Source of the DNA: Planctomycetota bacterium
Lineage (GTDB): Bacteria; Planctomycetota; Brocadiia; SM23-32; JAKLEA01
DNA length: 64,000 nt
Direction: 5' to 3'
Assembly: GCA_022711755.1 (NCBI GenBank)
Contig: JAKLEA010000001.1
Span: 336,743-400,742 of the forward strand
This document shows positions 1,982 through 54,394 of this stretch, one piece after another (position 1 is the first letter of the stretch; every line of letters starts with the position of its first letter). Below the pieces are notes generated by a model. That model was not told the DNA's origin and did not search any database. It saw only the letters and a program-made list of their open reading frames with translations. Made by a program: the position numbers and the translations under genes.

Positions 1982-3712
1982 CTATTCTTCAACAAGGGTT
2001 TCGCGCGCCACTTCTTCGATTGTTGTCATACCGTCATAGATCGCCAGCAGTCCAGACTCGCGGAGGCTGCGCGTTCCGTATTTCCTTGAACATTCACGCA
2101 ATTCCTGAGTCGAAGCGTTAGTCAAGATGAGTTGCCGCATTTCATCGTTGAGCATTAGCATCTCAAATATCGCCATTCGCCCGCGATAGCCTGTGTTATT
2201 GCACTGGTCACAACCTCGCCCGAAAAAGAACTTCTTGCCTCGGACCTCTTCCGGGACAAGGCCAAGTTCCATGAGCAATTCTGTCGTAGGTTCAAATTCT
2301 TCCTTGCAGTTATTACAAATGCGCCTTACGAGACGTTGGCCGACAATGCCTTCTACGGTGGCACAGAGAAGGTACGGCTCCAGCCCCAGGTCCAGTAAAC
2401 GCGTCACTGCCGATGGCGTGTCATTCGTGTGCAGCGTTGTAAAAACCAAGTGCCCTGTCAGCGAGGCCTGGATGGCGATCTGGCCAGTCTCAACGTCACG
2501 GACTTCGCCGACAAGGATGATGTCCGGGTCCTGCCGCAGGATAGCGCGAAGGCAGCGCGCAAAAGTTACGCCTATATCCGAATTAATTTGCACCTGCATT
2601 ATGCCTTCCAAGTCATATTCCACAGGGTCCTCAGTGGTTATGATCTTTACATTAATGGCGTTCAATGCGTTCAGGCAGCCGTATAGAGTCGTCGTTTTTC
2701 CGGAGCCGGTAGGTCCGGTTACGAGGACAATCCCGTTTGGCTTTGCCATCAGAGTGCGCATATTTTCCAGTTCATCGGGCCGGAATCCGAGCTTTTCGAT
2801 GTCAAGCGCAACAACGCTGCGGTCAAGAACGCGCAACACGACGCTTTCGCCGAACATGGTCGGCAGGCATGATACACGCAGGTCAACTGGATTTCCTGAG
2901 ACATTCAGCTCGACACGACCGTCCTGTGGGCGGCGCCGCTCGGCGATATCCAGGCGCGACATGACCTTGATACGCGAGGTAAGCGCAAGCGCCAGATGCT
3001 TGGGAGGGGGAACCATTTCATACAGAACGCCGTCAACACGATATCTGATCTTAAATTCATCCTCGAACGGCTCAAAGTGAATGTCGCTGGCCTTATCCTT
3101 GATTGCCTGCAAAAGGATAAGGTTGAGGAGTTTTCTGACCGGGGCGATGTTGGCCATTTCCTCAAGACTGGCAATATCCACTGATTCCGACTGACTGGCG
3201 GAGAACTGGATGCCTTCATACTCCTTGTCAAGCTCGTCAATCAGGCCCTGAACGCTTTCAGTCGAATCCCGGTAGTATTTGTGTAATGCCCTGTTGACTG
3301 CATCTTCATTGCTGACGGAGCCTGTCACCTCGCAATCCAGCAGAAAGCGCAGATCGTCCAGCGTTTTCAAATGCATTGGATTGGCGAGGGCAACAGTAAG
3401 ATTCCCTTCGTGATAGGAAACCGGAATGACGCGATAAACTTGAGCAACGCTTGCGCTCACGCGATCAATAACCTCTGGTGGAATCTCAGTTTTGTCAAGG
3501 TCCACTACTTCCATGCCGGCCTGAACCGCAAGGGCCATGGTCACTTCTTCGTTGGTGACGTAGTTTAATTTCACCAGGATGGAACCGATGGCTCCTCCCC
3601 TCTCCTTCTGAATGGCCAGGGCTTCCTGAATCTGACTCTCGGTGACAAGGTGCATCTCCTTCAGTATCCTACCGAGGAGTTTCTTCGGTTGCTGTTCATC
3701 CATCTCCGGCAT
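1982..3712 (-). CDS. Type II/IV secretion ATPase, GspE/PilB family
   Basis: It has the Walker A motif GPTGSGKTTT, an N-terminal GspII_E_N-like domain, and a C-terminal Cys4 motif (CNNC...CDQC). GAGGAG lies 8 nt upstream of the ATG. Confidence 0.9.
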   Translation of the reverse strand: MPEMDEQQPKKLLGRILKEMHLVTESQIQEALAIQKERGGAIGSILVKLNYVTNEEVTMALAVQAGMEVVDLDKTEIPPEVIDRVSASVAQVYRVIPVSYHEGNLTVALANPMHLKTLDDLRFLLDCEVTGSVSNEDAVNRALHKYYRDSTESVQGLIDELDKEYEGIQFSASQSESVDIASLEEMANIAPVRKLLNLILLQAIKDKASDIHFEPFEDEFKIRYRVDGVLYEMVPPPKHLALALTSRIKVMSRLDIAERRRPQDGRVELNVSGNPVDLRVSCLPTMFGESVVLRVLDRSVVALDIEKLGFRPDELENMRTLMAKPNGIVLVTGPTGSGKTTTLYGCLNALNAINVKIITTEDPVEYDLEGIMQVQINSDIGVTFARCLRAILRQDPDIILVGEVRDVETGQIAIQASLTGHLVFTTLHTNDTPSAVTRLLDLGLEPYLLCATVEGIVGQRLVRRICNNCKEEFEPTTELLMELGLVPEEVRGKKFFFGRGCDQCNNTGYRGRMAIFEMLMLNDEMRQLILTNASTQELRECSRKYGTRSLRESGLLAIYDGMTTIEEVARETLVEE

Positions 3713-3743
3713 TTGGAGTCTCCTCGACTCAATCGCGTGGTTG

Positions 3744-5495
3744 TTATTCCTGATCCATTGCGCCCGCGATGCTGATCACTTCATCAATCGTGGTGACGCC
3801 TTGCAGCGCTTTGCGAACCCCGTCTTCTGTCAGCGTAAGCATGCCATGTGCGCGTGCGCGCGCGCGAAGCTCATGCGTCGGAGCTTTCTTGAAGGCAAGC
3901 TCGCGCAGTTCGGGGTTCATTTCCAGCATTTCTGAAATGGCGCAACGTCCTCTGTATCCCGTATCGTGACAGTAAGAACAACCTGTTCCTTTGAAGAGGG
4001 TTATGTCTCGCAGGTCATCCGGCCGAAGTCCCACAGCCATCAGCATTTTTGCGGGATATTCGTAAGGCTGCTTGCAGTTATCGCAAATCTTACGTACCAG
4101 GCGCTGCGCCATGATGGCCTGAATCGCGCTGGCCACAAGGAAAGGTTTCACGCCTATGTCTATCAGGCGTGCAATTGCGCTCGGAGCGTCATTCGTGTGC
4201 AGCGTGCTGAAAACAAGGTGTCCTGTAAGCGCCGCTGTTATTGCGATTTCCGCTGTTTCCTGGTCACGGATTTCTCCCACCAGGATGATGTTGGGGGCCT
4301 GGCGCAGCATGGCGCGCAGGATGGCGCCGAAAGTCCTTTGAATGTCTTCGCGAACCTCGCACTGGTTGATTCCGCTCAGGTTATACTCAACCGGGTCTTC
4401 GGCGGTGATGATCTTGCGGTCGGGACGGTTAAGTTCATTCAAGGCGGCATACAACGTGGTCGTCTTACCGGAACCGGTAGGCCCCGTCACAAGGAAAATT
4501 CCGTTGGGACGACGGATTATGCTCTGAAACCTTTGATAATCCGTTTCGTGGAATCCGAGGTCGGACAGATTCAAAAGAATGGACTCCTTCAACAGCAGGC
4601 GCATGACGACCGTTTCACCGTTGGTGGCAGGCATCACGCTGACGCGAAGGTCCAATGCCTTGCCGCCGGCTTTGATAGCGATACGTCCGTCCTGGCACTT
4701 GCGTTTTTCGGCTATATCCATCTTCGACATCAGTTTCACGCGAGCCAGCACGGCATTCTGCAATCTTTTCGGCGGGCTTTCGATCTCCTGGCACTCGCCG
4801 TCAATTCGGTACCTGATTCTGACGCGGTTGGCCATTGGTTCGATGTGGATATCGCTCGCCCTGTTGCGAACCGCCTCGCCGATTAACATCGTCACCAGGC
4901 GGATGATCGGCGCCGAATCGGCTTCGTCACCGGCGCCCGGAGCGCCGACGGTCTTCTTGGATTCTTCGTCCATGCCCTCGGAGACCGTCCCCTCATCAAG
5001 GTTAGAAAATGTTGCTTCGCTGCTGGTGAACTCCTGGAGCATGTTGTCAACCGTTGATTCTTCGCCGCCGTAATATTGTTCGATTGCCTCCTCGATCTGT
5101 TCCGGCGGGGCCAGAACCGGTTGCACGTCCGATTCAAGGATGAAGCGAAGACTGTCAACAGCAAAGAGGTCGAGGTCCGGCATGGCAACGCGTATGACGC
5201 CGTTTTCCTTGCTGATCGGCATGATGCGGTGATTCAGGGCTGTCTGCTTGGGCACGGAGTCAATGGCTTCTACGCTGATTTCAACTTCGCCAAGGTCAAC
5301 GACAGGGATATCGAACTGTTCTCCCACGCACTGGAGGACATCCATCTCCCTCGCAAAGCCTAGTTTTACAAGAGCTTCACCCAGTTTGATCTTTTCGGCA
5401 GACTTCTGCTGGAATTCCAGGCCTCTCTTGAGCTGATCCTTGGTTATTGTGCCGCGATCCACCAACATCTGCCCTATCAACTTCCGTTTTGACAT
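3744..5495 (-). CDS. Type II/IV secretion ATPase, GspE/PilB family (tandem paralogue)
   Basis: It has the Walker A motif VTGPTGSGKTTT and a Cys4 motif (CDNC...CSYC). The ORF extends to 5516; the likely start is MSKRKLIG, which has GGGAG upstream. Confidence 0.85.
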   Translation of the reverse strand: MSKRKLIGQMLVDRGTITKDQLKRGLEFQQKSAEKIKLGEALVKLGFAREMDVLQCVGEQFDIPVVDLGEVEISVEAIDSVPKQTALNHRIMPISKENGVIRVAMPDLDLFAVDSLRFILESDVQPVLAPPEQIEEAIEQYYGGEESTVDNMLQEFTSSEATFSNLDEGTVSEGMDEESKKTVGAPGAGDEADSAPIIRLVTMLIGEAVRNRASDIHIEPMANRVRIRYRIDGECQEIESPPKRLQNAVLARVKLMSKMDIAEKRKCQDGRIAIKAGGKALDLRVSVMPATNGETVVMRLLLKESILLNLSDLGFHETDYQRFQSIIRRPNGIFLVTGPTGSGKTTTLYAALNELNRPDRKIITAEDPVEYNLSGINQCEVREDIQRTFGAILRAMLRQAPNIILVGEIRDQETAEIAITAALTGHLVFSTLHTNDAPSAIARLIDIGVKPFLVASAIQAIMAQRLVRKICDNCKQPYEYPAKMLMAVGLRPDDLRDITLFKGTGCSYCHDTGYRGRCAISEMLEMNPELRELAFKKAPTHELRARARAHGMLTLTEDGVRKALQGVTTIDEVISIAGAMDQE

Positions 5496-5553
5496 GAACA
5501 TTACTCCCGGACGCAAACAACACGAATGACTGGTTACGTCCGAATGTTATTCG

Positions 5554-8121
5554 TTATGGCTTACGTGGTTCCTTGCCGGCGTCCTTTGCGCAACGGAAAC
5601 CGGTGCTTTTCTCCACCTGGTGAATGCTGGCTGTGCGCCGCGTAGTAGTCGCAATTCCCTTGATCGGTCCTCCACGCAGCATGGCCGTTGTTGATGAGGA
5701 GGAATACCGTCCTGAGCACCATTCCCAGACATTACCCAGCATATCCATTGCGCCAACTGGGCTTACACCTTGAAGGTATTTGTTGACCGGGGTCGTATGT
5801 CCGGCAATCAAGTTACATTTCTTGATGTCGAAGTCCTCGCCCCAGGGAAATTTTCGTCCGTCCGTTCCGCGGGATGCCCGCTCCCACTCCGCCTCGGAAG
5901 GCAGTCTTTTGCCCATCCATTCGGCATAAGCCTGGGCATCGGTGTAACTGACGTTTGTAACCGGATGCCGCTCCATGTCGGCGGGGAATTGTCCGTTTTG
6001 CCAGTGCGGCGGGGGGCGATGCCCGGTTGAGATTACGAAAGCGGCATAATCTCCATTCGTCACGGGGTATTTATCAATGAAGAAAGCCGGGAGATTGATT
6101 TTCTCTCCCCTGCGAAGTAACCCGCGTTTCTCGTCACCATATATGAACTCACCTTCGGGCACAAGTATCATGCTTTTGATGCCATGCTTGATGCGCACAA
6201 CCCTAAGCAGCTCCTCAACCTGCGGTTCCTGTCCAAACTTCTGCTTAAGCTCATCAAGTTCCAGCGATGCCGCCGTCAAGTCCCCAATTTTAAGAAGATT
6301 AGCGACTTCGGCCAGTCTGGCCTTCAAATGGCCCGCCCTGGTGACGTCGGCTTTCTTTGATGCTGCTTCAGCTATTTGTTTCAATTCGTCGTTATGTCGG
6401 TCAAGGTCAAGACCTTCCTTTGCGAGTTGCAAAGCCTCATCGTAATGGCCTTTTCCCAGAGCCATTTTCGCGGCCATCAGTTTTGCCGCCGCATCGTCTT
6501 TATTCATACTCTTGACGCGCGCGGTGGCATAAGTAAAAGCCTTGCGCATCTCCTCATTCTGAGGATCAAGTTCAACTGCCTTTTTTGCCGCCGCTGCCAC
6601 AGAACGGTAGTCCTGCTCCGCCCACGCTGCCCTGGCGTCACGGATTGCGAAAGCCAGGTCTCTTTCGCGGATTTTGCCCGGCAGAATCTCAAGAACCTTA
6701 ACAAGATTCACATCGGACGGACGCAGTTCCAGCGCTCTTTTTATGAATACTTCCGCTTCCTCATAATTGTATTCATCAAGGCATTTCTGCGCCTTTGAGC
6801 GGAATTCTTCAAACCACTGGGCAATTTCCTGCGCTTGATTGAGAAGTTTTTTTGCGTCGGCATTATCGGGAACCAGTTCCAATGCGCCCTCAAACTCGCT
6901 GACTGCCGCAGAATAATTATGCTTCTCCATTGCTTCCTTGCCCGCGTTCAACTTTGCAAGCATCTTGATATATGAACGAAGGTCTAAACCGCATCCGCCG
7001 CAGAATTTTGATCGTATATGATTTTCAACGGAGCACTTGGGACATTCTTCAACCAGCCTTGTGCCACAAGACTCGCAATACTTCGCCTCCGGCGGATTGC
7101 GGAAATTACATTTGAGACAGGCCACAGGTCCGGCGCTGTCGGTCTGCTTGTCGCCTAGAAGACCATCAATTGCCTCGATGACTTCCCGCGCATTCTGGTA
7201 GCGGTCATCCGGGCTTAATTCCGTCGCTTTGCCAATGATGTTGCGTACATCATCAGGAACTTTATTGAGGTCCTTGCGGATCGGCGGACTGCCGACAACC
7301 AGTTCATAGAACGTGTTGCCAAGCGCATATATATCCGCCCTGTGGTCAATATTCACGGCGTCAAACTTCTGTTCCGGAGCCATGTAAGCCATTGTGCCGA
7401 CCGTGTACCCGCTCTCCGTAACTTCTTCTTTTGCGCCGACTTGCGCAAAGCCGAAATCAACAATCTTCGGCGTGTCGTCGTCTGTCAGCAGGACATTGGC
7501 CGGTTTCAGATCCCGGTGAATTACACCCTTTTCATGGGCATGAGCGAGTCCTTCGCATACTGCGCGGATAATTTTCACGGAACGCATCAGGGGCATCGCT
7601 CCTTCGCGCTTTACAAGGCTGTGCATATCCTCCCCGTCAACGTACTCCATCGAAATGAAGTAACCGGCATCATCGTGATCCACGTTATAAACGCGTATGA
7701 TATTAGGGTGATTCAGCTTTACTATTGCCCTTGCTTCCACGAGAAAACGCTGAAGACTTTTCTCATCCTTGATCACTCGCTTATGCAGGCGTTTTAATGC
7801 GACCGTGGTGTCGAGAATCTTGTCATAAGCCCTGTAGACATTTGCCATTCCGCCACGGCCAAGCTTGTCAAGGACCGTATAGCGGCCCCCAGCGTCATTG
7901 CTTTTGAACTGATCTGTCCTCACCTCAACCGTTGACGCAGCGCCCTGACTGTCCGTGGTGGAACTTCGCCGTGAATCCTGTTGCTCCAATTTCGTGCCGC
8001 AGTGCGGGCAAAACTGCCCTTGGATATCAAGCGTAGCCGAACAGTTCGGACAAACAAGTTTCGCACCCGAATCGCCGGAGCGAAGCTTCTGATTCTGCGC
8101 TTTTGGTTCGGCTCCACTCAC
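5554..8121 (-). CDS. Ser/Thr protein kinase with an N-terminal zinc ribbon, a second zinc ribbon, TPR repeats and a C-terminal FGE-sulfatase (formylglycine-generating-enzyme-like) domain
   Basis: The kinase catalytic loop HRDLKPANVLL and DFG are present. The zinc ribbons are CPNC...CPHC and CLKC...CESC...CPKC...CGGC. TPR-like helical repeats follow. The C-terminus carries FGE-domain hallmarks (YPVTNGDYAAF, GNVWEWC). The start codon is GTG. Confidence 0.8.
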   Translation of the reverse strand: MSGAEPKAQNQKLRSGDSGAKLVCPNCSATLDIQGQFCPHCGTKLEQQDSRRSSTTDSQGAASTVEVRTDQFKSNDAGGRYTVLDKLGRGGMANVYRAYDKILDTTVALKRLHKRVIKDEKSLQRFLVEARAIVKLNHPNIIRVYNVDHDDAGYFISMEYVDGEDMHSLVKREGAMPLMRSVKIIRAVCEGLAHAHEKGVIHRDLKPANVLLTDDDTPKIVDFGFAQVGAKEEVTESGYTVGTMAYMAPEQKFDAVNIDHRADIYALGNTFYELVVGSPPIRKDLNKVPDDVRNIIGKATELSPDDRYQNAREVIEAIDGLLGDKQTDSAGPVACLKCNFRNPPEAKYCESCGTRLVEECPKCSVENHIRSKFCGGCGLDLRSYIKMLAKLNAGKEAMEKHNYSAAVSEFEGALELVPDNADAKKLLNQAQEIAQWFEEFRSKAQKCLDEYNYEEAEVFIKRALELRPSDVNLVKVLEILPGKIRERDLAFAIRDARAAWAEQDYRSVAAAAKKAVELDPQNEEMRKAFTYATARVKSMNKDDAAAKLMAAKMALGKGHYDEALQLAKEGLDLDRHNDELKQIAEAASKKADVTRAGHLKARLAEVANLLKIGDLTAASLELDELKQKFGQEPQVEELLRVVRIKHGIKSMILVPEGEFIYGDEKRGLLRRGEKINLPAFFIDKYPVTNGDYAAFVISTGHRPPPHWQNGQFPADMERHPVTNVSYTDAQAYAEWMGKRLPSEAEWERASRGTDGRKFPWGEDFDIKKCNLIAGHTTPVNKYLQGVSPVGAMDMLGNVWEWCSGRYSSSSTTAMLRGGPIKGIATTTRRTASIHQVEKSTGFRCAKDAGKEPRKP

Positions 8122-19929: not shown

Positions 19930-21900
19930 CTACCCGCGAATGCTGTCTTTGATCGCGTCTAAAAGGCGCGAAAGATCATTGTACATGACAAGCGCGAAGA
20001 TGGCTATTATGATCGCCCATCCCGTGTAATAAAGGCCCGCTCTTGCTTTTTCATTCAGTGGTTTGCCGCGAATCTTCTCATACGCAAGAAGAACCAGCAT
20101 TCCACCATCAGTAACAGGAATCGGCAACAGGTTGATAAGCACCAGGCCAACGCTGAGAAGGCCCAGCAAGGATGCGTATCCCCCCACTCCCCTGAGAATA
20201 ACGGATCTGTAACTGACGTGAACGATGGCTATCGGACCGCCGAGATTCTTCGCGCTGACGCTCCTGTCGAAGAACCTGCCGACTGTGGCGATTGTCTGCA
20301 TGAATGCGTCATAGGTCTCATAGCATCCTTCTATTATGGCCCTCCCTGGAGTTGTCCGGTAAAGCTCGCTCTCTGTCTTTCCAAAGATGACTCCTATCAT
20401 GCCATCCGCTTCCGGATCAACTGGCGTCGGCTTGACCTCGGTCTGCATGAGCTTTCCCGCGCGCTCCCACTCGAAAAGCATGGGCTTGTCATAACTGCGC
20501 TCACGGGCGAGGACGATATCCATGAAGCGCGCAATCTTTTGACCGTCAACCCGCGTCACAACGTCCCCGCCCTGCAGTCCGGAAACATCCGCCGCGCTGC
20601 CGGGGAGCACGTAGGCGATTCTCAGGCTCGGTTCAGCGAATATACTTTCAAGAAATTCCTTTGCCGCGTTATCGTCCGAAAGATCAATCTGAAATATCTT
20701 CTGTTCGCCATTGCGATCTATTTTTAACTCAACCGATTGGCAGTCGTTCGTTTCAAGCACATCAAGCTGTGTCAGGCTTGTAATCGGTTCCCCGTTTGAT
20801 TCAAGAATGCGGTCATTAGCCCTAAGTCCTGCCCTATACGCAAATCCATCCCTGGCAACCTTATCGAGAATGTTTCCCGCGCTGGATATTCCAAGCCGTG
20901 TCGGAGCGACTTTTGCCGGAATTACCGTCTTGCGGATTATTGAATTATCGCGTTTGATAACAAGTGACAAGGCTTTCTCTGGAGAATCATCTATCCGCTC
21001 AATTACTTCGTTTCCCGTCATTGCGGGACGCCCATTGATTTCAACAATTTTGTCAAAACGCCCCAGTGAAAGCTTCTGCCCGTATCCGGCGGTCATCATG
21101 GTTATATTGTCAAGGTGTTTGATTTTCAGTTCGAAAACCTCCGGCACTTGATTCGGCTCGGCAGGAGCATCCTCAATCAGCAGAATGCTATCGCCGATTT
21201 TAAGTCCTGCCTCCATAGCGGGATTCCGCGCGCCCAATTCAGGCGGGTTGGCAAAATCTGTGATTTCATTGGCGATTGCAGGACTGATACCGAGCTTTCG
21301 CAACCCCAGATCAGGATCATATTCCGGAAGAATATCATACCTGGAAATCTCACTCCCGCGGGCAATTTCCAAATATATGGGTTCTTCAGGACCGCTCAAG
21401 GCGCCAAGCCTGATAAGATAATCGAAGGTGGGGTCTTCTCGGTTCATTGCTTTGACAATGCGGTCTCCCTTTCGGATTCCGGCCTCCCATGCCGGGGAAC
21501 CGGGGATGGTATCGCCTACCAGCGCCAGAGGACGCGGAACACCCCAAGCAAATGCGAATATGAAGATGCCCAGCGCGAAGAGTATGTTGAAAAAAACCCC
21601 CGCGCCAAAGACAATAGCCTTCTGCCCCGGTGTTTTGGCTCCGAACTCGTGTGGTTCCGGAGCCTTACCGGTTTCCTCTTCGCCGGCAAGTTTAACAAAT
21701 CCCCCGAGTGGAATTGCGGAAATACAATAATCGGTTTCGCCGTATTTTCGACCGAAAAGCCTGCGTCCCAGACCAAGGGAAAACGTTTCCACGCGCACCT
21801 TTACCAGCTTTGCAGCCAGAAAATGCCCCAATTCATGAACGATGATAAGCAGGCTGAAGCCGGCCAGGCTGAGGGCGCCGGCTAGTATTTTTTCAAACAT
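19930..21900 (-). CDS. rseP: RIP metalloprotease RseP (site-2 protease) with multiple PDZ domains
   Basis: It has HELGHFLAAK (the HExxH motif) in TM1 and several PDZ-like segments. The probable start MFEKIL has GAGGAA upstream; the ORF extends to 21924. Confidence 0.85.
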   Translation of the reverse strand: MFEKILAGALSLAGFSLLIIVHELGHFLAAKLVKVRVETFSLGLGRRLFGRKYGETDYCISAIPLGGFVKLAGEEETGKAPEPHEFGAKTPGQKAIVFGAGVFFNILFALGIFIFAFAWGVPRPLALVGDTIPGSPAWEAGIRKGDRIVKAMNREDPTFDYLIRLGALSGPEEPIYLEIARGSEISRYDILPEYDPDLGLRKLGISPAIANEITDFANPPELGARNPAMEAGLKIGDSILLIEDAPAEPNQVPEVFELKIKHLDNITMMTAGYGQKLSLGRFDKIVEINGRPAMTGNEVIERIDDSPEKALSLVIKRDNSIIRKTVIPAKVAPTRLGISSAGNILDKVARDGFAYRAGLRANDRILESNGEPITSLTQLDVLETNDCQSVELKIDRNGEQKIFQIDLSDDNAAKEFLESIFAEPSLRIAYVLPGSAADVSGLQGGDVVTRVDGQKIARFMDIVLARERSYDKPMLFEWERAGKLMQTEVKPTPVDPEADGMIGVIFGKTESELYRTTPGRAIIEGCYETYDAFMQTIATVGRFFDRSVSAKNLGGPIAIVHVSYRSVILRGVGGYASLLGLLSVGLVLINLLPIPVTDGGMLVLLAYEKIRGKPLNEKARAGLYYTGWAIIIAIFALVMYNDLSRLLDAIKDSIRG

Positions 21901-42136: not shown

Positions 42137-42214
42137 CCGGGGCGTAGCTCAGTTTGGCTAGAGCGCTTGGTTTGGGACCAAGAGGTCGCTGGTTCAAATC
42201 CAGTCGCCCCGACC
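42137..42214 (+). tRNA. tRNA-Pro (anticodon TGG)
   Basis: I folded the cloverleaf by hand. It has a 7-bp acceptor stem CGGGGCG/CGCCCCG, an anticodon loop TTTGGGA with G37, the T-loop TTCAAAT and an encoded CCA. Confidence 0.9.
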
Positions 42215-42437: not shown

Positions 42438-42806
42438 GTGAGCATGGCCTTCGCATTCGAGAAACTGAACGTCTATCAGAAAGCCGTCACCTTCGCCGAC
42501 AACGTTTGCACGCTGACTCGTGACCTGCCTCGCGGATACTTCTTTCTTGCCGATCAACTGAATCGCGCCGCCCTCTCCATCGCTGCCAACATTGCGGAAG
42601 GCAACGGACGTTTCACGAAAGCCGACCGGAGGAACTTCTTCGGCATTGCCCGTGGCTCGGTCCAGGAATGTGTGCCGCTGCTGGAACTGGCGCGGCGTCG
42701 GGGCTTGATCAGCGAACAAGATCACGGCAGACTGAAGGACGACCTCGAAGAGATAGCCCGCATGCTGTCAGGGCTGATCAACGGGTTGGAGAAGCGGAGA
42801 GAATGA
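42438..42806 (+). CDS. Four-helix-bundle protein (23S rRNA intervening-sequence protein / Avd-like family)
   Basis: The family pattern is recognisable (YQKAVTFADNVCTLTRDLPRGYFFLADQLNRAALSIAANIAEGNGRFTKADRRNFFGIARGSVQE). Confidence 0.75.
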   Translation: MSMAFAFEKLNVYQKAVTFADNVCTLTRDLPRGYFFLADQLNRAALSIAANIAEGNGRFTKADRRNFFGIARGSVQECVPLLELARRRGLISEQDHGRLKDDLEEIARMLSGLINGLEKRRE

Positions 42807-43439: not shown

Positions 43440-43874
43440 CTACAATCTCGGCTTCAACTGCATGATCCCCGTATCCGTGTTCTTAACCCGCTGTAGCGGG
43501 CAGCCGCGCAGCTTGTGGACCACGATCTCGGTCAGATAAAGCGTCCGGCATCCCGCGTGCATGTGGCCCGCGTATGTCTTCTCCCCGATACCCATCACGC
43601 AATGCAGGTGCGGCTCGTAATCGGCTATGATCCCCTGAAGGGCGGCCACTTCGATAGGGCCTTCAAGCTCATACATCTCGTTTTCCGCCGGATACCCCGT
43701 CGTCGTGATGTAGTGCATCGCCGCCCTGTCAACCGTCGCCACGCAACTGACTATCACGCCGGTCTGGATGTCCAGCTTGCGGGCGAGCTTGCGGATGGAC
43801 TCAATAATGTCATCCCCCTGATCAAGCCTTATGGCAATGATGTCCTCAATCTGTATGCCTGTGAAGTATTCCAT
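43440..43874 (-). CDS. PPC/DUF296 domain protein
   Basis: The 144-aa sequence fits the DUF296 pattern (IIAIRLDQGDDIIESI...HLHCVMG). Confidence 0.6.
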   Translation of the reverse strand: MEYFTGIQIEDIIAIRLDQGDDIIESIRKLARKLDIQTGVIVSCVATVDRAAMHYITTTGYPAENEMYELEGPIEVAALQGIIADYEPHLHCVMGIGEKTYAGHMHAGCRTLYLTEIVVHKLRGCPLQRVKNTDTGIMQLKPRL

Positions 43875-43930: not shown

Positions 43931-44911
43931 CTATTTCCCCTTCAAAACATGCAGGTTGACGCAGTTGGGCGGAGTCCGCCCCTCAAGCGCCGCGATGATG
44001 TTCTCCGCCGTCATGGCGGACATCTTCTGCCGCGTGCCAGTCGAAGCGCTGCCCAGATGCGGAAGCAGAACAACGTTATCAAGCTTCATCAGAACGGGAT
44101 TGACCTTCGGCTCATTCTCGTAGACGTCAAGCCCCGCCCCGGCGATTCGCTTGTTCATCAACGCCTCTGCCAACGCAGCCTCATCAATGACCGGACCGCG
44201 CGAAGTGTTGATCAGATACGCGGTCGGTTTCATCATCTCCAACTGCGCCTTGCCGATGAAATGCCGGGTCTCAGGAATAAGCGGGCAGTGAAGGCTGATG
44301 TAGTCCGATTCCCTCAGCAGTTCTTCGATCCCGACCTTGCGAGCGCCAAGCTCGCTCTCCATCTCCGGGCGGGCGATGGGATCGTGGTACAGGACCTTCA
44401 TGTCCCATCCCCTGCTCCGCCGCGCCACGGCGTAACCGATCCTGCCCGCGCCAACTATTCCGAGCGTTCTTCCGGCGAGGTCCCCTCCCAGCAACTGCAT
44501 CGGCCCCCACCCGGCCCACGTCCCGGAGCGCATCCACCTGTCGCCCTCAACCACGCGTCGAGACGCCGACATCAGCAGCGCCCACGCAAGGTCGGCAGTG
44601 GCGTCGGTGAGAACGCCCGGCGTGTTTGAAACCGCTATGCCCCGCGCAGTCGCCGCCGCGACGTCAATGTTATCGTAACCGACCGCCATCTGACCGATTA
44701 TGCGGAGCTTTGGGGCGCAGTCCATGACGGCGCCGTCGAACTTGTCCGTCAGCAGGCAGAACACGCCTTCGCAATCGCGGATGTTCGCAATGATCTCATC
44801 GCGCGTCAGCACACGGTCCTCATCGCTCACGCGCGCGTCAAATCCCGCATCCAGCAGCATTTTCGGGCCGGAATCCGGTACCGGCCTCGTCACGTAGACC
44901 TTCTTCATCAT
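43931..44911 (-). CDS. D-isomer-specific 2-hydroxyacid dehydrogenase (glyoxylate/hydroxypyruvate reductase-like)
   Basis: The NAD-binding motif GIVGAGRIG is present. The catalytic R/E/H context reads ISLHCPLIPETRH...GAGLDVYENEP. The likely start is MKKVYVTRP; the ORF extends to 45040. Confidence 0.8.
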   Translation of the reverse strand: MMKKVYVTRPVPDSGPKMLLDAGFDARVSDEDRVLTRDEIIANIRDCEGVFCLLTDKFDGAVMDCAPKLRIIGQMAVGYDNIDVAAATARGIAVSNTPGVLTDATADLAWALLMSASRRVVEGDRWMRSGTWAGWGPMQLLGGDLAGRTLGIVGAGRIGYAVARRSRGWDMKVLYHDPIARPEMESELGARKVGIEELLRESDYISLHCPLIPETRHFIGKAQLEMMKPTAYLINTSRGPVIDEAALAEALMNKRIAGAGLDVYENEPKVNPVLMKLDNVVLLPHLGSASTGTRQKMSAMTAENIIAALEGRTPPNCVNLHVLKGK

Positions 44912-45055
44912 CGGCTGAAAACCTTTCCATCTGCTCCAGTCGCAGGTTGTGCGACTTGCCCGGCAAGTTTCGCACACTATAGCAATTGTCCGAAGTCTAC
45001 CACGAAGCCGTCTGCCAGACCAGAGCCGGCGTAATATCATAAAATTGCTTGCATC

Positions 45056-45083
45056 GTATGAATAATAACGATATTATCATATG
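45056..45083. promoter_or_regulatory. AT-rich imperfect palindrome GTATGA-N15-TCATAT. It resembles a NikR-type operator upstream of the Ni/Co uptake genes.
   Basis: The sequence is GTATGAataataacgatattaTCATATGattcatg, with an internal ATAATA...TATTAT dyad. It lies 40-65 nt upstream of the 45121 start. Confidence 0.3.
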
Positions 45084-45120
45084 ATTCATGTGTAATACCA
45101 ATTCTTGAAAAGGAGTTCCA

Positions 45121-46002
45121 ATGAAGACATTCCGCTGCATGGTCTGCCTGCTACATTCGTGTATCATCTTGACACTGGTCTCCCTCGCTTCCGAGACAAT
45201 CCCTCCGCAAGCCGAACAGGAATCTGTGGAAGAAGAACGGTGCGAACACGAACACAGCAAGATCAACACCGAAGACCCCAGCCCGGTTGCGCCCGGCAAC
45301 GTGGAGATCGAGACTGCTTACTCCTTCATGACTGCGAACAAGGCGCTCGATGAGAAGGGGGAAACCATATCGCGGGGATATCGGGCGGAAAACGCCTTCG
45401 ACGTCGGCATCGGAGTTGGGATACTTGAGGACTTCGACGCCGGCGTCGGCATGGGTTACGTGACCATGCGCGACAACGACACCGATCAAGAAACGGGCCG
45501 GGGGTTCGGCGATATCGGCGTCGGCGCAAGATGGCGGTTCTGGCGCGATGATAAGTATCACATTGAATTCGCGTATCTCCAGGGGCTGACCGTCCCCGTA
45601 GGCAACAGCGAGAACGAACGGGAGCTTGCGCCCGGACAGAAGTTCTGGAGCGCGGATCAGCGTTTTGCCTTTTGTAAAGACTGGCCGAAATGGACGCTTG
45701 GTACCGATTTCGGCTTCGAAATTCCTTTCGGAGAAAAACGAGAAGATTGCAGAGGCGTAGCATCCGCCAATGTGGCCGCAGGCTACAAAGTCTTTGATTG
45801 GCTTCAGCCGGAAATCGAACTGAACGGTTCGCGCGAAATCGTCAATCACGATTCCGCCTCCGAAACTCTGGCTGTAACCGTAGGGGTTATCCTCCTATTC
45901 GGCGAGAACTGGAAATTCATGGCCGGAGCGCAGCAGGTTCTCTTAGCGCGAAACGCCGACAAGGAAACATCCCTGATTGCTTCTCTCACCCTCTGCTGGT
46001 AG
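45121..46002 (+). CDS. Putative outer-membrane beta-barrel protein preceding the ECF Ni/Co transporter
   Basis: It has a signal peptide, with AAGGAG 8 nt upstream. Alternating amphipathic beta-strand-like segments are present and the C-terminus is aromatic (LTLCW). No family was recognised. Confidence 0.4.
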   Translation: MKTFRCMVCLLHSCIILTLVSLASETIPPQAEQESVEEERCEHEHSKINTEDPSPVAPGNVEIETAYSFMTANKALDEKGETISRGYRAENAFDVGIGVGILEDFDAGVGMGYVTMRDNDTDQETGRGFGDIGVGARWRFWRDDKYHIEFAYLQGLTVPVGNSENERELAPGQKFWSADQRFAFCKDWPKWTLGTDFGFEIPFGEKREDCRGVASANVAAGYKVFDWLQPEIELNGSREIVNHDSASETLAVTVGVILLFGENWKFMAGAQQVLLARNADKETSLIASLTLCW

Positions 46003-46040
46003 CATACTTTGAAACAGTTGTTCATACCGAGGTGAATCTC

Positions 46041-47069
46041 ATGCACATGGCGGACGCGCTGATTTCTCCGGCCGTCGGTCTCGGTTTCTGGGCTGTTTCA
46101 GGAACGCTGGCGGCAAGAGCTGCCCGGAAACTGGAAACCGACTCGTCTCGCGCTCCCATGATGGGGGTTCTCGGAGCGTTCGTCTTCGCTGCGCAAATGA
46201 TCAATTTCACCATCCCCGGAACCGGTTCCAGCGGGCATCTCGGCGGCGGACTTCTGCTGAGCATTCTCCTCGGCCCTTCAGCCGCGCTCATAACGATAAC
46301 CGGCGTCCTGACCATACAGTGTCTCCTCTTCGCCGACGGAGGGTTGCTGGCCCTCGGCTGCAACATTTTTAATTTGGGCTTTTATCCTTGCTTCATCGGC
46401 CTCCCGATTTACCGGTTTATTGCAGGAAATGGAGATTCCCGCTCCAGATCCGCCTTCGGCATGATCGCGGCAAGCGTTATCGGGCTGGAGCTTGGCGCGT
46501 TGTCCGTTGTCGCGCAGACAGTCCTCTCCGGCATTGGCGATCTCCCATTCGGCAAGTTTATCCTGTTTATGGGCGGCATTCACCTGCCGATCGGGATCGT
46601 TGAGGGATTGGTCACGGTATCAGTCGTCGGCTTCGTCACAAAAATACGCCCGGCGGCATTGCTTGAATCATCAGCGTCGGCACAATCGGCATTCCCCGCT
46701 GCGTCGTCCGGGATTCTTGCCGCGCTGCTTTGCCTTGCTCTGGGCATAGGAGGCGTCCTGGCATGGTATGCCTCCGAGAAACCCGACGGTCTGGAATGGT
46801 CCGTAACACGCGCCACAGGCCGCGAAGAGCTTGAATCGGGCGGCGGACTTGCCGCGCGCGCGGCAGAAGTCCAGGAGAAAGTCGCCATCCTGCCGGACTA
46901 TTCCTTCCGCGAGAGCGATGGAGAATCAGCCCCGTCCGCGCGGGCCGGAACCTCAACATCAGGCGTGGTGGGAAGCATAGTCACACTGCTCTGCGTATCC
47001 CTTGCCGCTGTCGGGATTGCAGCAGTCAGGCGCGGCAGGTCATCCACACCAACCAGCGCTGAACCATGA
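46041..47069 (+). CDS. cbiM: ECF-type cobalt/nickel transporter substrate component CbiM/NikM with a C-terminal PDGLE-domain extension
   Basis: The canonical CbiM N-terminus is present (MHMADALISPAVGLGFW...PGTGSSGHLGGG). The C-terminal part reads EKPDGLEW and is followed by a TM helix. The ORF track start 45798 is spurious. Confidence 0.8.
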   Translation: MHMADALISPAVGLGFWAVSGTLAARAARKLETDSSRAPMMGVLGAFVFAAQMINFTIPGTGSSGHLGGGLLLSILLGPSAALITITGVLTIQCLLFADGGLLALGCNIFNLGFYPCFIGLPIYRFIAGNGDSRSRSAFGMIAASVIGLELGALSVVAQTVLSGIGDLPFGKFILFMGGIHLPIGIVEGLVTVSVVGFVTKIRPAALLESSASAQSAFPAASSGILAALLCLALGIGGVLAWYASEKPDGLEWSVTRATGREELESGGGLAARAAEVQEKVAILPDYSFRESDGESAPSARAGTSTSGVVGSIVTLLCVSLAAVGIAAVRRGRSSTPTSAEP

Positions 47070-47845
47070 GCCACCACGTCGCGACTCTCGACATGCTCGG
47101 CCAGGGCGATTCGCCCATGCACCGGCTCGACCCCCGTGCGAAAATCATCGCTCTTATCGTATTCATCGCCTCCGTCGCGTCCTTCCCGAAATATTCTGTG
47201 GGACGGCTGACGCCATATTTCTTCTACCCGATGCTTCTGATATCCGCCGGCGGCATCCCGCTCAGGCCAATTCTTGGACGTATCATCCCCGCCCTGCCCT
47301 TCGCGATCATGGTAGGTCTGTTCAATCCGCTTCTTGACGCCACTCCGTATCAGGTCGGACCGTTCGTCGCGCGGGCTGGATGGGTCTCATTCGCCTCGAT
47401 TCTGGCGCGCTTTCTGCTGACCGTCGGCGCGGTTCTCTGCACAATCGCCGTCACCGGCTTTCCGTCCATGTGCCGTGGGCTTTCGGAATTGGGCGTTCCG
47501 CGCCCTCTTGTCATGCAGATTCAGCTTACGCATCGCTATCTTTTCACGCTGCTCTCGGAGGGAGAAAGGCTCAGGCGCGCCCGCAACATGCGAAGCTTCG
47601 GCAGGTCCGGGCTGGACTGGCGAACGGCCGGGCGCATGTTCTCGGTTCTGTTCATGCGCACCCTCGACAGGGGAGAGAGAATCCACGCCGCTATGCTTTG
47701 CCGGGGTTACAACGGCAGCCTTCCCGCGTTGACACGCGGACGCTTCAACCGGAGCGACGCTCTTTTCCTCCTGGCGATATGCGTCACCTCGGTCCTTTTC
47801 CGTCTTGTGCCAGTCACTGACATGGTCGGAGGTTTCCTGAATTGA
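47066..47845 (+). CDS. cbiQ: ECF transporter transmembrane (T) component CbiQ
   Basis: RLDPRAKIIALIVFI and the polytopic profile are present. The start overlaps the cbiM stop. Confidence 0.7.
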   Translation: MSHHVATLDMLGQGDSPMHRLDPRAKIIALIVFIASVASFPKYSVGRLTPYFFYPMLLISAGGIPLRPILGRIIPALPFAIMVGLFNPLLDATPYQVGPFVARAGWVSFASILARFLLTVGAVLCTIAVTGFPSMCRGLSELGVPRPLVMQIQLTHRYLFTLLSEGERLRRARNMRSFGRSGLDWRTAGRMFSVLFMRTLDRGERIHAAMLCRGYNGSLPALTRGRFNRSDALFLLAICVTSVLFRLVPVTDMVGGFLN

Positions 47846-48582
47846 GCGATCTCGCCGTCCAGATCACCGACCTCCGCCTGCGCTACGCCGACGGCACACT
47901 GGCGCTGGACGGAGTTTCAATGACTGTCCTTAGCGGCGAAAGAGTTGCCATGATCGGTCCCAACGGCGCGGGGAAATCGTCCCTGACACTGGTCATGGCA
48001 GGAGCGATTGCGCCGACCGGGGGGGAGGTCATAATCGAGAATGTCAGGCTTGAAAAGAAGAATCTCCCTGAAATCCGCCGCAGGCTCGGGCTTGTATTTC
48101 AAAACCCCGACGATCAGCTTTTCATGCCCACGCTCTTCGACGACGTCGCCTTCGGCCCGATCAACATGGGCCTGCCGGAGGACGAGGTCAGGCATCGCGT
48201 CGCGGACACGCTGAACGCTGTCGGCCTTTTGGGAAGGGAAAGCCGTTTCCCGGGTCATCTTTCGTTCGGGCAGAAGCGAGCAGCATCTATCGCCGCAGTC
48301 CTTTCAATGGGACCTTCAGTCCTTGTCCTTGACGAGCCGACCAGCAATCTCGATCCCAGGGGACGGCGCGAACTGCTGGACCTGCTCAAAACGCTCGGCA
48401 AGACGATGGTCCTTGCGACACATGACCTTGAATTCGCCCTTTCGTTATGCGAAAGGGCCGTGATTCTCGACGGCGGACGCAAGGTCGCAGATGGACCGAT
48501 TCGCGGCATCCTTGCGGACAGGGCGCTTATGGAAAATCATCGCCTTGAGGTCCCTGCCTCGCTCCTTTCCCGACCCGGCTGA
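47842..48582 (+). CDS. cbiO: ECF/ABC transporter ATPase CbiO
   Basis: It has Walker [11 protein letters not shown], the signature [10 protein letters not shown] and Walker [12 protein letters not shown]. Confidence 0.85.
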
Positions 48583-51803: not shown

Positions 51804-53510
51804 TTATTGCCGGACTTTATCGGAAGGTTCCGGCCCAAGCTCAAGCCTGTATTCGCGTATTTCAAACAATCGGAAATCCCGGACCTCCCCCGTCGGAACC
51901 AGGTGCGACCTTCCCATGCTGGTAATGCCCGGCGGCGCGGCCTTGTTGATGAGGATGTATGCCCTGTCCGGAAACTGCATGCCCGGTTTCCAGACCTGCG
52001 CGGCGGGATTGAGAAACCTGATCAGGTGCGGGAGGCCGCCGGTCCAGTTCGCCGCGACAATTGCAGATGCCATGTCGTGATCGGCTGCAACCTGTTCGAT
52101 CAGCGGCGGATAGGAAAAGTCGGCGAGAAGGATCGGGTTTGAAGCCGCGCGTTGACCGAGATACTCCGCCATCTGGAGCTTGTTGGCGTATGAAGGCCCC
52201 GTCGGGCCTGCCGCCCCGCCCAGCCGATTCACAAGCCGGATGTATTCCGAAGACATCATGACTCCCCCACCCGCCAGAATCGCAGTAATAAATAATGCAG
52301 GCCACCGTGCGGCAGGCATTCCTTTTGCCTTTATGCCATCAGTAATACTCTTGAGCGCCATTCCGACGGTGATAAAAATCGCCGGCATGCCGACAAAGAA
52401 ATAGCATCGCTGCAAGGGTTCAGAATAGAACATCAGCGGAGGCGCTAGAAGGAAGACCAGCAGGATTATCTCCGCCGAGTTCCCTGCGGCGCTCAAACTC
52501 TCATGCCCTCCCCCCTGCGCCGGAGCGTGCTCAGGCTCTTCATTGCTGCTGGGCGCTATAGTGCGCAGTTTGGAGATTAACATAATCGTCCCGATAATGA
52601 GTAGCGATCCTCCAAGAACACCCGCCAGTTTAGGAAGCGCCAGGAATTCTTCAGATAGCTCGCTAGTCGTCGGTCCCAGATAGTATTCCGGAATCCCGGC
52701 CATGCCGAGAATCTCGAGCATGAACCGGAAACCTCTGAAAGTCGGCTCTCTCGCCGTCTTGCCACCGACCACGCCGAAGAATTTGGCCACGTCCTCGAAA
52801 CCGGACCCGGACTCGAAAATGATGAACGGCAACGCCGTCAGAAAACATGCCCCCGCTGCGCAGAGCCACCACTTAAGCGGTATTCTGCGCCGCATCAGCA
52901 GCCACATGACAGGCACGGCGGCGCAGAGCGGAACGCCGGAATAATGGACCTGCGCCGTGACGCACAGAACAGTCAGAGCCAGCGCCCAGGTCCATGCCCG
53001 GGGCTTCTCCATGAAAAGCAGGCAGCAGTAAAGGCTCAGCGTCGCAAAGAAACACATCAGATCGGGCGCCCAGAGCTTGCGCGTTTCCAGAACCGCCCAG
53101 GCGTTCGTCGCCATCAGCAATGCCGGAATAATCGCCCACCCGCGCCCGATAATTCTGTGCGCAGCCATTCCGCAAAGCATGACCGCGAGAACCCCGCTCG
53201 CGGCGCTCACGCCGGCCAGCGTAAGCGGACTGTCGCCGAAAATCAGGCCCGGAATCAGCGCGTAATAGAACCACGGCGGAAACATCATGCTTTTGCTGTC
53301 CGGGCTGGAACGATGCCCGCAGAGAGGGATATTCCCTTCCAGCACGCCCAGAAGCGCCTCGTGATGATCGGCCTGGTCCCCCCGAAACTCCATGACCTCC
53401 AGACTGTAGAACCGGAGGCTGGCGGCTGTATACAAAACCAACACCGGCAGGACTAGACGCGTCAAACTACTCCAGTCCTTTTCAATGCTTGTCGTCATGC
53501 CGGTCCTCAT
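51804..53510 (-). CDS. Polytopic membrane glycosyltransferase-like protein (ArnT/PMT, GT39/GT83-like)
   Basis: It is a protein of about 12 TM helices with an N-terminal loop (YSLEVMEFRGDQADHHEAL). The family assignment is tentative. Confidence 0.5.
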   Translation of the reverse strand: MRTGMTTSIEKDWSSLTRLVLPVLVLYTAASLRFYSLEVMEFRGDQADHHEALLGVLEGNIPLCGHRSSPDSKSMMFPPWFYYALIPGLIFGDSPLTLAGVSAASGVLAVMLCGMAAHRIIGRGWAIIPALLMATNAWAVLETRKLWAPDLMCFFATLSLYCCLLFMEKPRAWTWALALTVLCVTAQVHYSGVPLCAAVPVMWLLMRRRIPLKWWLCAAGACFLTALPFIIFESGSGFEDVAKFFGVVGGKTAREPTFRGFRFMLEILGMAGIPEYYLGPTTSELSEEFLALPKLAGVLGGSLLIIGTIMLISKLRTIAPSSNEEPEHAPAQGGGHESLSAAGNSAEIILLVFLLAPPLMFYSEPLQRCYFFVGMPAIFITVGMALKSITDGIKAKGMPAARWPALFITAILAGGGVMMSSEYIRLVNRLGGAAGPTGPSYANKLQMAEYLGQRAASNPILLADFSYPPLIEQVAADHDMASAIVAANWTGGLPHLIRFLNPAAQVWKPGMQFPDRAYILINKAAPPGITSMGRSHLVPTGEVRDFRLFEIREYRLELGPEPSDKVRQ

Positions 53511-54394
53511 CCGCGCGGGTGGAATCGTTTATGAACGCTCTTCAACTGGTCCTTCGAGACGTGCGTGTAGATTTCCGTTGTTGAGATATTAACGTGTCCG
53601 AGCAAAATCTGCACTGTTCTCAGATCCGCCCCCCCTTCAAGCAGGTGTGTGGCAAAGCTATGGCGCAAAGCATGAGGGTAGACATTTGCCCTGATTCCAG
53701 CCTTACGCGCATAACGCTTCACCAGCGACCAGAGCGCCGTTCGCGTCAGACGCTTTCCGCGTATGCTCAGAAAAAGCGCGGTCTCCTCCGCAGCCCCCTT
53801 CCATGCTGGGCGCGCATCCCCAAGATAATGGCGCAGATGATCCCGCGCCAGATCGTTGAGCGGCACAATCCTTTCCTTCATCCGCTTTCCGTAGCATCGC
53901 GCATAACCCACGTCAAGGTCAACGCTGGAGACGTCAAGTCCGGTCACCTCGCTCACCCGCGCCCCCGTGGCGTAGAAAACCTCCAGTATCGCGCGATCTC
54001 GTATTCCAACAGGCTCTGAAACGTCCGGGGCATTCAGCAGATTCTCGACGTCCCTCACAGTTAGAACCTCAGGAAGCCTTTTCCAGAGTCTCGGTGACTC
54101 AACCAGCGAGGTCGGGTCGTTCGGAATGATCCCCTCGGCCGTCAGGAAGCGAAAAAACATCCGGATGGCGACAACCGCGCGCCAGACCGAGTTGACCGCA
54201 AGGCCGCGCTCCTTCTCCGCAACCATGAAGTCAACAAGATGCCCCGCCCGCGCGTCGCCCGGCGCGGCAACGCCCTGCGCCGTGAGAAACTCCGTGAACC
54301 GCGTCAGATCCCGCCCGTAGGCGTCAATGGTATTCGGCGACGCCCCGCATTCGGCGGAAAGGTATTCGAGGAAGGATTTTATGTGCTCCCGCAA
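53507..54394 (-). CDS. Tyrosine site-specific recombinase, XerC/XerD family
   Basis: The R...HxxR...Y catalytic set is present (ALRHSFATHLL...LGHVNISTTEIYTHV). The N-terminal core-binding domain is EYLSAECGASPNTIDAYGRDL. Confidence 0.8.
   Translation of the reverse strand: MREHIKSFLEYLSAECGASPNTIDAYGRDLTRFTEFLTAQGVAAPGDARAGHLVDFMVAEKERGLAVNSVWRAVVAIRMFFRFLTAEGIIPNDPTSLVESPRLWKRLPEVLTVRDVENLLNAPDVSEPVGIRDRAILEVFYATGARVSEVTGLDVSSVDLDVGYARCYGKRMKERIVPLNDLARDHLRHYLGDARPAWKGAAEETALFLSIRGKRLTRTALWSLVKRYARKAGIRANVYPHALRHSFATHLLEGGADLRTVQILLGHVNISTTEIYTHVSKDQLKSVHKRFHPRG

Follow-up and report, generated by a model that had tools for sequence, protein, structure and literature searches.

The passage of Ni2+, Fe2+ and Zn2+ across the outer membrane is mostly ascribed to general porins or TonB-dependent receptors (PMC11247825). 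A locus in a Planctomycetota bacterium raises the question of whether an inner-membrane metal importer can be encoded together with an outer-membrane channel of its own and, if so, which metal and which regulator the pair would serve. The locus lies in a 64,000-nucleotide (nt) stretch of contig JAKLEA010000001.1 (assembly GCA_022711755.1), which we refer to as the window and whose numbering we use throughout. The sequence, its open reading frames (ORFs) and Pfam matches define a four-gene operon on the forward strand (45121-48582) that encodes, in order, a β-barrel protein, a CbiM/NikM protein with a fused PDGLE domain, CbiQ and CbiO. This operon almost certainly specifies an energy-coupling factor (ECF) importer for nickel or cobalt. 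On balance we favour the reading that it is a nickel importer, perhaps also taking cobalt, which has a dedicated outer-membrane channel and is probably repressed by NikR. The operon and the DNA ahead of it are made up as follows.

43931-44911, reverse strand, divergent from the barrel gene: 2-hydroxyacid dehydrogenase gene (Pfam).
44912-45120, no strand assigned: intergenic region of 209 nt, AT-rich, holding the candidate operator and promoter.
45110-45115, forward strand: ribosome-binding site AAGGAG, 5 nt ahead of the barrel ATG, read from the sequence.
45121-46002, forward strand: barrel gene, 293 amino acids, PF13557 (Phenol_MetA_deg), E 4.6e-14.
46041-47069, forward strand: cbiM/nikM-PDGLE, 342 amino acids, CbiM (PF01891) E 2.5e-53, PDGLE (PF13190) E 6.8e-26.
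47066-47845, forward strand: cbiQ/nikQ, the T component, TIGR02454 and PF02361.
47842-48582, forward strand: cbiO/nikO, the ATPase, TTG start, PF00005.

The initial annotation of this DNA had called a Ni/Co ECF transporter operon headed by a signal-peptide protein of β-barrel character, with overlapping stops and starts at cbiQ and cbiO. This description holds: every ECF part was recovered with Pfam and NCBIfam models, cbiM and cbiQ overlap by 4 nt (ATGA), as do cbiQ and cbiO (TTGA), and the prediction of a barrel passes, as described below. The barrel gene and cbiM are separated by 38 nt. The position of the ribosome-binding site backs the start codon at 45121, which provides the barrel protein with its signal peptide. 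The terminator scanner reported no convincing terminator 3' of cbiO.

We examined the first cistron at the level of fold, which was needed because a sequence search of the PDB with the barrel protein returned nothing meaningful. Its match to PF13557 scores 53.5 bits against a gathering cut-off of 22. An AlphaFold2 model built with a 47-sequence alignment as input has a mean pLDDT (predicted local distance difference test) of 92.5 and 12 strands as assigned by DSSP. A Foldseek search of the PDB with this model gave the COG4313 channel Pput2725 (4RL8) as the top match (E 1e-12, TM-score 0.74-0.80), with FapF next. As read from the sequence, the protein begins with a signal peptide, MKTFRCMVCLLHSCIILTLVSLA, with the mature chain starting at SE, and ends in LTLCW, so that its terminal residue is Trp. 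Together, the fold match, the signal peptide and the C-terminal Trp identify the protein, at the level of a structural model, as a COG4313-type outer-membrane channel. Its mature part is strongly acidic (47 Asp and Glu residues against 25 Lys and Arg) and carries an acidic, His-containing N-terminal extension. The segment ahead of strand 1, EEERCEHEHSKINTED, holds a motif of H45, K47, N49, T50 and D52 that is invariant in the seven closest relatives, and residues 41-60, which lie N-terminal to strand 1 of the barrel, are modelled with confidence.

Membership of the COG4313 family could point away from metals. Pput2725, from Pseudomonas putida F1, belongs to the same family (PF13557) and is the best structural match to the window barrel. 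Its proposed substrates are hydrophobic, and hydrophobic molecules are also what the COG4313 family as such has been linked to taking up. Pput2725 is the only channel of this family to have been characterised; it conducts ions poorly and was judged an unlikely channel for hydrophilic solutes (PMC4493636), which weighs against a role in metal passage. The window barrel could thus be a conventional channel for hydrophobic or aromatic compounds, or an unrelated outer-membrane protein, that merely lies upstream of the importer genes and has no metal role. However, it shares only 16% identity with Pput2725, and its subfamily differs in being strongly acidic and in occurring in metal-uptake operons.

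To place the barrel among its relatives we ran an exhaustive HMMER search of 1.84 billion proteins, accepting matches up to E 1e-3. The subfamily proved small, with 208 cluster representatives, and a word-index protein search with the barrel gave 2 matches only. Loci were then taken from one genome per species with a 7-sequence alignment, the 47-sequence alignment being too diverse for this purpose, and the neighbours in 53 loci were mapped by tblastn and Pfam. The barrel adjoins cbiM, cbiQ or cbiO in 11 of the 53 (L009, L015, L017, L018, L022, L026, L030, L034, L037, L040 and L042). These loci span Planctomycetota, the Planctomycetes-Verrucomicrobia-Chlamydiae (PVC) group, Victivallales, Brocadiaceae, Desulfobulbus and an alphaproteobacterial genome, and their gene orders vary (barrel-cbiM, cbiM-barrel and cbiM-barrel-cbiQ).

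Relatives of the barrel also stand beside genes for other metals. In six loci the barrel gene lies directly 3' of feoB (L013, L014, L041, L044, L056 at about 2800-6900, and L003 at 1-2275). L003 is the only close metagenomic homologue of the barrel, and three of the six (L041, L044 and L056) have the order fur-feoB-barrel, with a fur-family gene first. This arrangement suggests that the barrel family may also serve Fe2+ uptake. Four loci, L024 (4812-8965), L025, L035 and L055 (2300-7438), together present a zinc-type context, in which the neighbours of the barrel include a Zur-like gene of the fur family. ZnuA, which has a His-rich loop, and DUF1007 are the neighbours at L024 and, by clustering, at L025 and L035, and a GTPase of the CobW type is the neighbour at L055. 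Periplasmic CbiK is the neighbour at L016 and, by clustering, at L011 and L021. ModA-like binding proteins adjoin the barrel at L048, a less certain case that depends on our own ORF calls in high-GC DNA. Overall, a metal-uptake gene or metalloregulator stands beside the barrel in about half of the 53 loci.

By guilt by association, this recurrent synteny points to a barrel subfamily that serves the passage of metals across the outer membrane, and from the gene neighbourhoods we consider it quite likely that the window barrel is functionally coupled to metal entry. The suggestion in the initial annotation that the barrel may be a dedicated outer-membrane channel thus gains strong backing, as regards its link to metal uptake, from synteny in other genomes. 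The same evidence argues against a hydrophobic-compound channel that happens to lie upstream. The gap between barrel and cbiM is 38 nt and one promoter region is common to both, the two genes are neighbours in more than one order and in several phyla, candidate NikR boxes stand directly ahead of the barrel gene in three loci (L018, L022 and L026), paralogues of the barrel adjoin feoB, znuA and cbiK, and the acidity of the mature protein points the same way. We therefore regard that alternative as improbable.

Some of these loci have features of their own. At L042 (4564-6636) an insertion of the IS3 type, with HTH_Tnp_1 and rve ORFs at 4788-5935 on the reverse strand, interrupts a barrel gene 3' of cbiM(PDGLE). 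L037 (266-2668) has barrel-cbiQ-cbiO with no cbiM visible, carries a 26/52-nt tandem repeat (4.8 copies) at the contig end (1-124), and has in its promoter ACATGAT-N14-ATCATAT, which resembles site A of the window (below). At L015, a Planctomycetota barrel-cbiMQO operon is preceded, at a distance of some 300 nt, by a match to the Rfam Acido-Lenti-1 small RNA (5403-5448, reverse strand, 44.7 bits).

The inner-membrane part of the system is more familiar. In the cbiM product, the CbiM/NikM S component occupies residues 2-205 and the PDGLE domain residues 225-324 (nt 46713-47012). In the PDGLE tail, two helices, the first of them transmembrane, flank an extracytoplasmic stretch containing EKPDGLEW. 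This two-helix layout, together with a weak match of residues 229-323 to the NCBIfam CbiN model (E 1.3e-4), identifies the tail as a small accessory module of the N type (NikN/CbiN/NikL). The CbiM part aligns with the nickel transporter component TtNikM2 (PDB 4M58) at E 1.5e-21, and the alignment shows that the equivalents of Met1-His2, His67, Gln94, Gly101-Gly102, His190 and Glu198 are all kept; the roles of these residues as metal ligands or stabilising residues were established for TtNikM2 (PMC3945884). CbiQ scores 128.1 bits on TIGR02454, above the cut-off of 111.8, and also matches PF02361. CbiO matches ECF and cobalt ATPase models at E 1e-59 to 1e-64 in alignments that begin at residue 1, and its score on the subfamily model TIGR01166 (200.5 bits) is slightly below the cut-off of 211.8.

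The profile match to PF13190 confirms that the C terminus of CbiM carries PDGLE, as had been noted at first. The accompanying statement that PDGLE is normally a separate small protein, which would make the fusion unusual, did not survive comparison. CbiM and PDGLE are fused in all 120 of the 120 best homologues, and natural Nik(MN) fusions are known from Geobacter and Rhodobacter (PMC545781; PMC3945884), so the claim of an unusual fusion has no support. The inner-membrane transporter with its fused PDGLE domain is routine and belongs to the known Nik/Cbi(MN)QO family.

Which metal does this transporter carry? Indications come from relatives. The order nikR(PF08753)-barrel-cbiM(PDGLE)-cbiQ-cbiO occurs in four of them (L018/L068, L022, L026 and L009), and in the organism of L018 the operon (L068, 2689-7695) stands back to back with a cluster for [NiFe]-hydrogenase, HycI and HypA. 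L009 has two PF13557 barrels, at 3613-4392 (reverse strand) and 6001-6855 (forward strand), of which the one in the operon is the more divergent; the closer relative of the window barrel is the divergently placed one, outside the nikR-cbiMQO operon.

Relatives also have NikR boxes, 27-bp sequences of the form GT[A/G]T[T/G]AC-N13-GTAA[T/C]AC that lie immediately ahead of nikR, the barrel gene or cbiM. Strong boxes are present at L009, L015, L017, L018, L022, L026, L033, L040 and L062. L017 has two perfect copies of GTGTTAC-N13-GTAACAC, and in L018 the DNA separating nikR from the barrel gene holds GTATTAC-N13-GTAATAC. In L022 and L026 the nikR promoter is covered by GTATGAC-N13-GTAATA[C/A], and a second box lies ahead of the barrel. 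L009 has two boxes, and L040, L033 and L015 have one each. In L062, a Planctomycetota nikR-cbiMQO locus with no barrel, the box is GTGTGAC-N13-GTAACAC.

Cobalt is the obvious alternative. The transporter and its barrel could serve cobalt for vitamin B12 synthesis, or another divalent metal. In that case NikR would play no part, and the palindromes upstream would be either the sites of another regulator or no more than AT-rich promoter DNA. The best NCBIfam models for CbiM are indeed named cobalt transporter CbiM, although all score under their cut-offs. Sequence does not tell CbiM from NikM, and nickel as well as cobalt is carried by CbiMNQO systems (PMC3945884); both points count against a nickel assignment. 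However, no cobalamin riboswitch was found in the window, in 12 related loci bearing the barrel or cbiM, or upstream of two Firmicutes homologues, and in Desulfoscipio geothermicus, where there is one (L075, 9836-10025, 129.9 bits), it lies 3' of cbiM(PDGLE)-cbiQ-cbiO, before cbiZ rather than before cbiM. No B12 gene adjoins the operon in the Pfam lists used for its neighbourhood (window 16.3-64 kb and 6.4 kb past the right end). The same lists contain no nickel-enzyme gene near the operon, which limits the case for nickel. With NikR genes and boxes in relatives of the same gene order, the hydrogenase neighbour at L068 and the lack of a cobalamin riboswitch, we hold nickel to be the more probable metal.

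The remaining question is whether NikR controls the operon in this host, for which we examined the intergenic region. Its GC content is 0.435-0.45, compared with 0.56 for the whole window. The initial annotation had described a NikR-like palindrome in this AT-rich DNA, and the palindrome is there as site A. The candidate elements are as follows.

45049-45077, forward strand: possible promoter TTGCAT-N17-TATTAT, picked out by eye, with sites A and B overlapping its -10 element.
45056-45082, no strand assigned: site A, GTATGAA-N13-ATCATAT (equivalent to GTATGA-N15-TCATAT), a NikR-like box of the enterobacterial type.
45071-45098, no strand assigned: site B, ATATTAT-N14-GTAATAC, overlapping site A, with a perfect right half GTAATACC.

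Two NikR signals have been described, GTATGAT-[N13/14]-ATCATAC in enterobacteria and GTGTTAC-[N13/14]-GTAACAC in delta-proteobacteria (PMC545781). Site A matches the enterobacterial consensus GTATGAT-N13-ATCATAC at 12 of 14 positions and, when written as 7-mers separated by N13, its N15 spacing falls within the published range. GTATGA-N15-TCATAT occurs once in the window. A scan of the window for the GTATGAT type with at most 2 mismatches gave 2 matches where 0.06 were expected; the second, at 21314, lies inside a 664-residue ORF and was taken as chance. Among 1,000 composition-preserving shuffles of the 209-nt region, one reached a 12/14 match to GTATGAT-N13-ATCATAC. Site B also matches at 12 of 14 positions, in this case to GTATTAC-N14-GTAATAC, and again 1 of 1,000 shuffles did as well. 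We further scored the region with a weight matrix made from 12 boxes of related loci, with the window left out and the boxes first picked by a degenerate-consensus scan. Site B has the best intergenic score, 14.1 bits, which 1 of 300 shuffles reaches.

Several observations weigh against NikR control. On the relatives' matrix site A scores -2.4 bits, while the score of site B lies towards the bottom of the range covered by the matrix boxes (12.5-26.5 bits) and ties for the top of the window with an intragenic site at 11190. The two halves of site B are spaced by N14, compared with N13 in all the relatives' boxes. A loose degenerate NikR consensus finds 2 matches in the window against 1.87 expected and so is not enriched, and both sites were examined post hoc. 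The promoter picked out by eye falls below the threshold of a sigma-70 consensus scanner. This scanner instead reports CTGCCA-N17-TATCAT (45012-45040, forward strand) and TTGGTA-N17-GATAAT (45101-45073, reverse strand), in numbers no greater than expected by chance. Finally, tblastn with six NikR queries found no nikR in the window, and none appears in the Pfam neighbourhood lists, so that the negative covers the 64 kb window and 6.4 kb past its right end, out of a contig of roughly 416 kb; the earlier statement that no nikR lies within 20 kb is therefore correct and extends to the full window. A NikR profile search retrieved 7,997 homologues, of which the best 120 were listed, and the two followed up (P0284 and P0272) come from other organisms and samples.

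For the cobalt alternative these weak boxes, selected after inspection, and the missing nikR are points in favour. Short palindromes are, moreover, common in AT-rich promoters, with 13 inverted-repeat pairs found in 231 nt, and the region upstream of the Tepidibacter homologue has a different repeated motif, TCATGAAG. Against it, both NikR-type consensus matches exceed 999 of 1,000 shuffles, whereas matches to other metalloregulator boxes do not: shuffles do equally well in 958 of 1,000 cases for the Fur 19-mer, 461 for the Fur 7-1-7 box and 579 for the PerR box, all no better than chance, and in 86 for a Bacillus Zur box, a weak and unconvincing match. Taking these results with those from relatives, among them the operons of the same gene order that are led by nikR and in one case stand beside a NiFe hydrogenase, we consider it unlikely that the operon serves cobalt or another metal with no part for NikR.

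Returning to a nickel importer under NikR, we read the intergenic sequence as most likely containing a degenerate operator of the NikR type, with three or four half-sites (45056, 45071/45076 and 45092). The initial annotation took the operator as an argument that the substrate is nickel. The argument stands in so far as nikR-led relatives have clear boxes and a [NiFe]-hydrogenase neighbour, and is weakened in so far as the window's own boxes are degenerate and site A scores poorly on the relatives' matrix. NikR-type control of the window operon is therefore close to evenly balanced in our view, with at most a slight lean in its favour. Phylogenetic footprinting on near-identical orthologues is ruled out here, because the host species is absent from the genome collection, where the closest barrel has 42% identity, and the closest CbiM found anywhere, on a metagenomic contig, has 59%.

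Two observations concern the upstream DNA more widely. The reverse-strand promoter-like match TTGGTA-N17-GATAAT overlaps the palindromic region, so the divergent gene for 2-hydroxyacid dehydrogenase could come under the influence of the candidate operator as well. In Tepidibacter, the DNA ahead of cbiM(PDGLE) (L074, 6820-6960) contains TCATGAAG/CTTCATGA four times, and one stretch there, TATGAATAGATTGATATTATACTTCATGA, resembles window 45057-45089; it could be the site of another regulator or an AT-rich coincidence.

Further from the operon, a tRNA gene (42138-42212; Rfam, 68.8 bits) is followed by a 23S_rRNA_IVP-domain gene (about 42444-42806) and, on the reverse strand, a PCC-domain gene (43440-43874). 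About 5 kb downstream of the operon, on the reverse strand, is a gene for a tyrosine recombinase (53507-54394; Phage_int_SAM_1 and Phage_integrase), either XerC/D-like or an integrase.

Under the reading that we favour, the operon would provide a full two-membrane uptake route for Ni2+, and possibly also Co2+, in a diderm bacterium of the Planctomycetota type. The small, acidic, 12-stranded COG4313-type barrel would let the cation pass the outer membrane without TonB. At the inner membrane, the metal would be bound at the square-planar site formed by Met1-His2 at the N terminus of CbiM/NikM and His, with help from the PDGLE (N-type) domain, and import would be driven by the CbiQ scaffold and the CbiO ATPase. 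Transcription would begin within the AT-rich DNA, near 45049-45085, and would be shut off once the cell has enough nickel, by a repressor of the NikR type that binds one or both of the overlapping 27-28-bp boxes over the -10 element and whose gene would lie in another part of the genome.

Much of this scheme has precedents. The group-I ECF systems Nik(MN)QO, NikMNQO and NikKMLQO of Geobacter, Rhodobacter capsulatus and Desulfovibrio (PMC545781, PMC2667541), and the system of TtNikM2 (4M58; PMC3945884), have M, Q and O components in common with the window operon. They are also alike in the two-helix module fused to M, in the Met1-His2 and His67 ligands and in NikR-box control among relatives. 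The window operon differs in having an outer-membrane barrel as its first cistron, no NikK and no adjoining nikR in the window. The Escherichia coli nikABCDE operator (GTATGA-N16-TCATAC) and the delta-proteobacterial signal are likewise dyads of 27-28 bp, whose two half-sites of 6-7 bp are set some two turns of the helix from each other. They cover the promoter of a nickel importer, as the window sites would cover the promoter picked out by eye. The window sites differ from these operators in having 2 mismatches each and in forming two overlapping candidates, and they would control an ECF-type transporter rather than NikABCDE.

The idea of joint control of entry at both membranes is also not new. 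In Helicobacter pylori FrpB4/FecA3 and other nickel-linked TonB-dependent transporters, as cited in PMC11247825, the concept is alike, with NikR co-regulating outer-membrane nickel entry and the inner-membrane importer. Transporters of the FrpB4/FecA3 type are 22-stranded and energy-dependent, whereas the window barrel has 12 strands and neither a TonB box nor a plug domain, and passage through it would thus presumably be by passive diffusion. The outer-membrane channel MnoP is co-regulated with MntH by Mur. MnoP, a Mn2+ channel of Bradyrhizobium japonicum (as cited in PMC6011978), is likewise small, dedicated to a metal and devoted to one metal's inner-membrane importer; the metal is different, and the likeness drawn here is one of role. 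For active import of nickel across the outer membrane, a recent comparative study of nickel homeostasis names only TonB-dependent transporters; it raises porins as a possible route for passive diffusion. Within our partial coverage of the literature, we found no description of nik ECF operons in which a COG4313 barrel is among the NikR-controlled products and has paralogues that occur with feo and znu genes.

Few dedicated passive metal channels are known for the outer membrane. As a tentative proposal, a small COG4313/PF13557 clade may consist of dedicated, TonB-independent outer-membrane channels for transition-metal ions, of which the window barrel would be the nickel version, recruited into operons of the NikR/Ni-ECF, Fur/Feo and Zur/Znu types in Planctomycetota, PVC bacteria, Desulfobulbaceae and others. 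Barrels preceded by NikR boxes in nik ECF operons, together with their paralogues beside feoB and znuA, provide a concrete and testable protein family for the crossing of metals. If the proposal is true, the functional label would change for part of a family that is now annotated as 'phenol degradation'.

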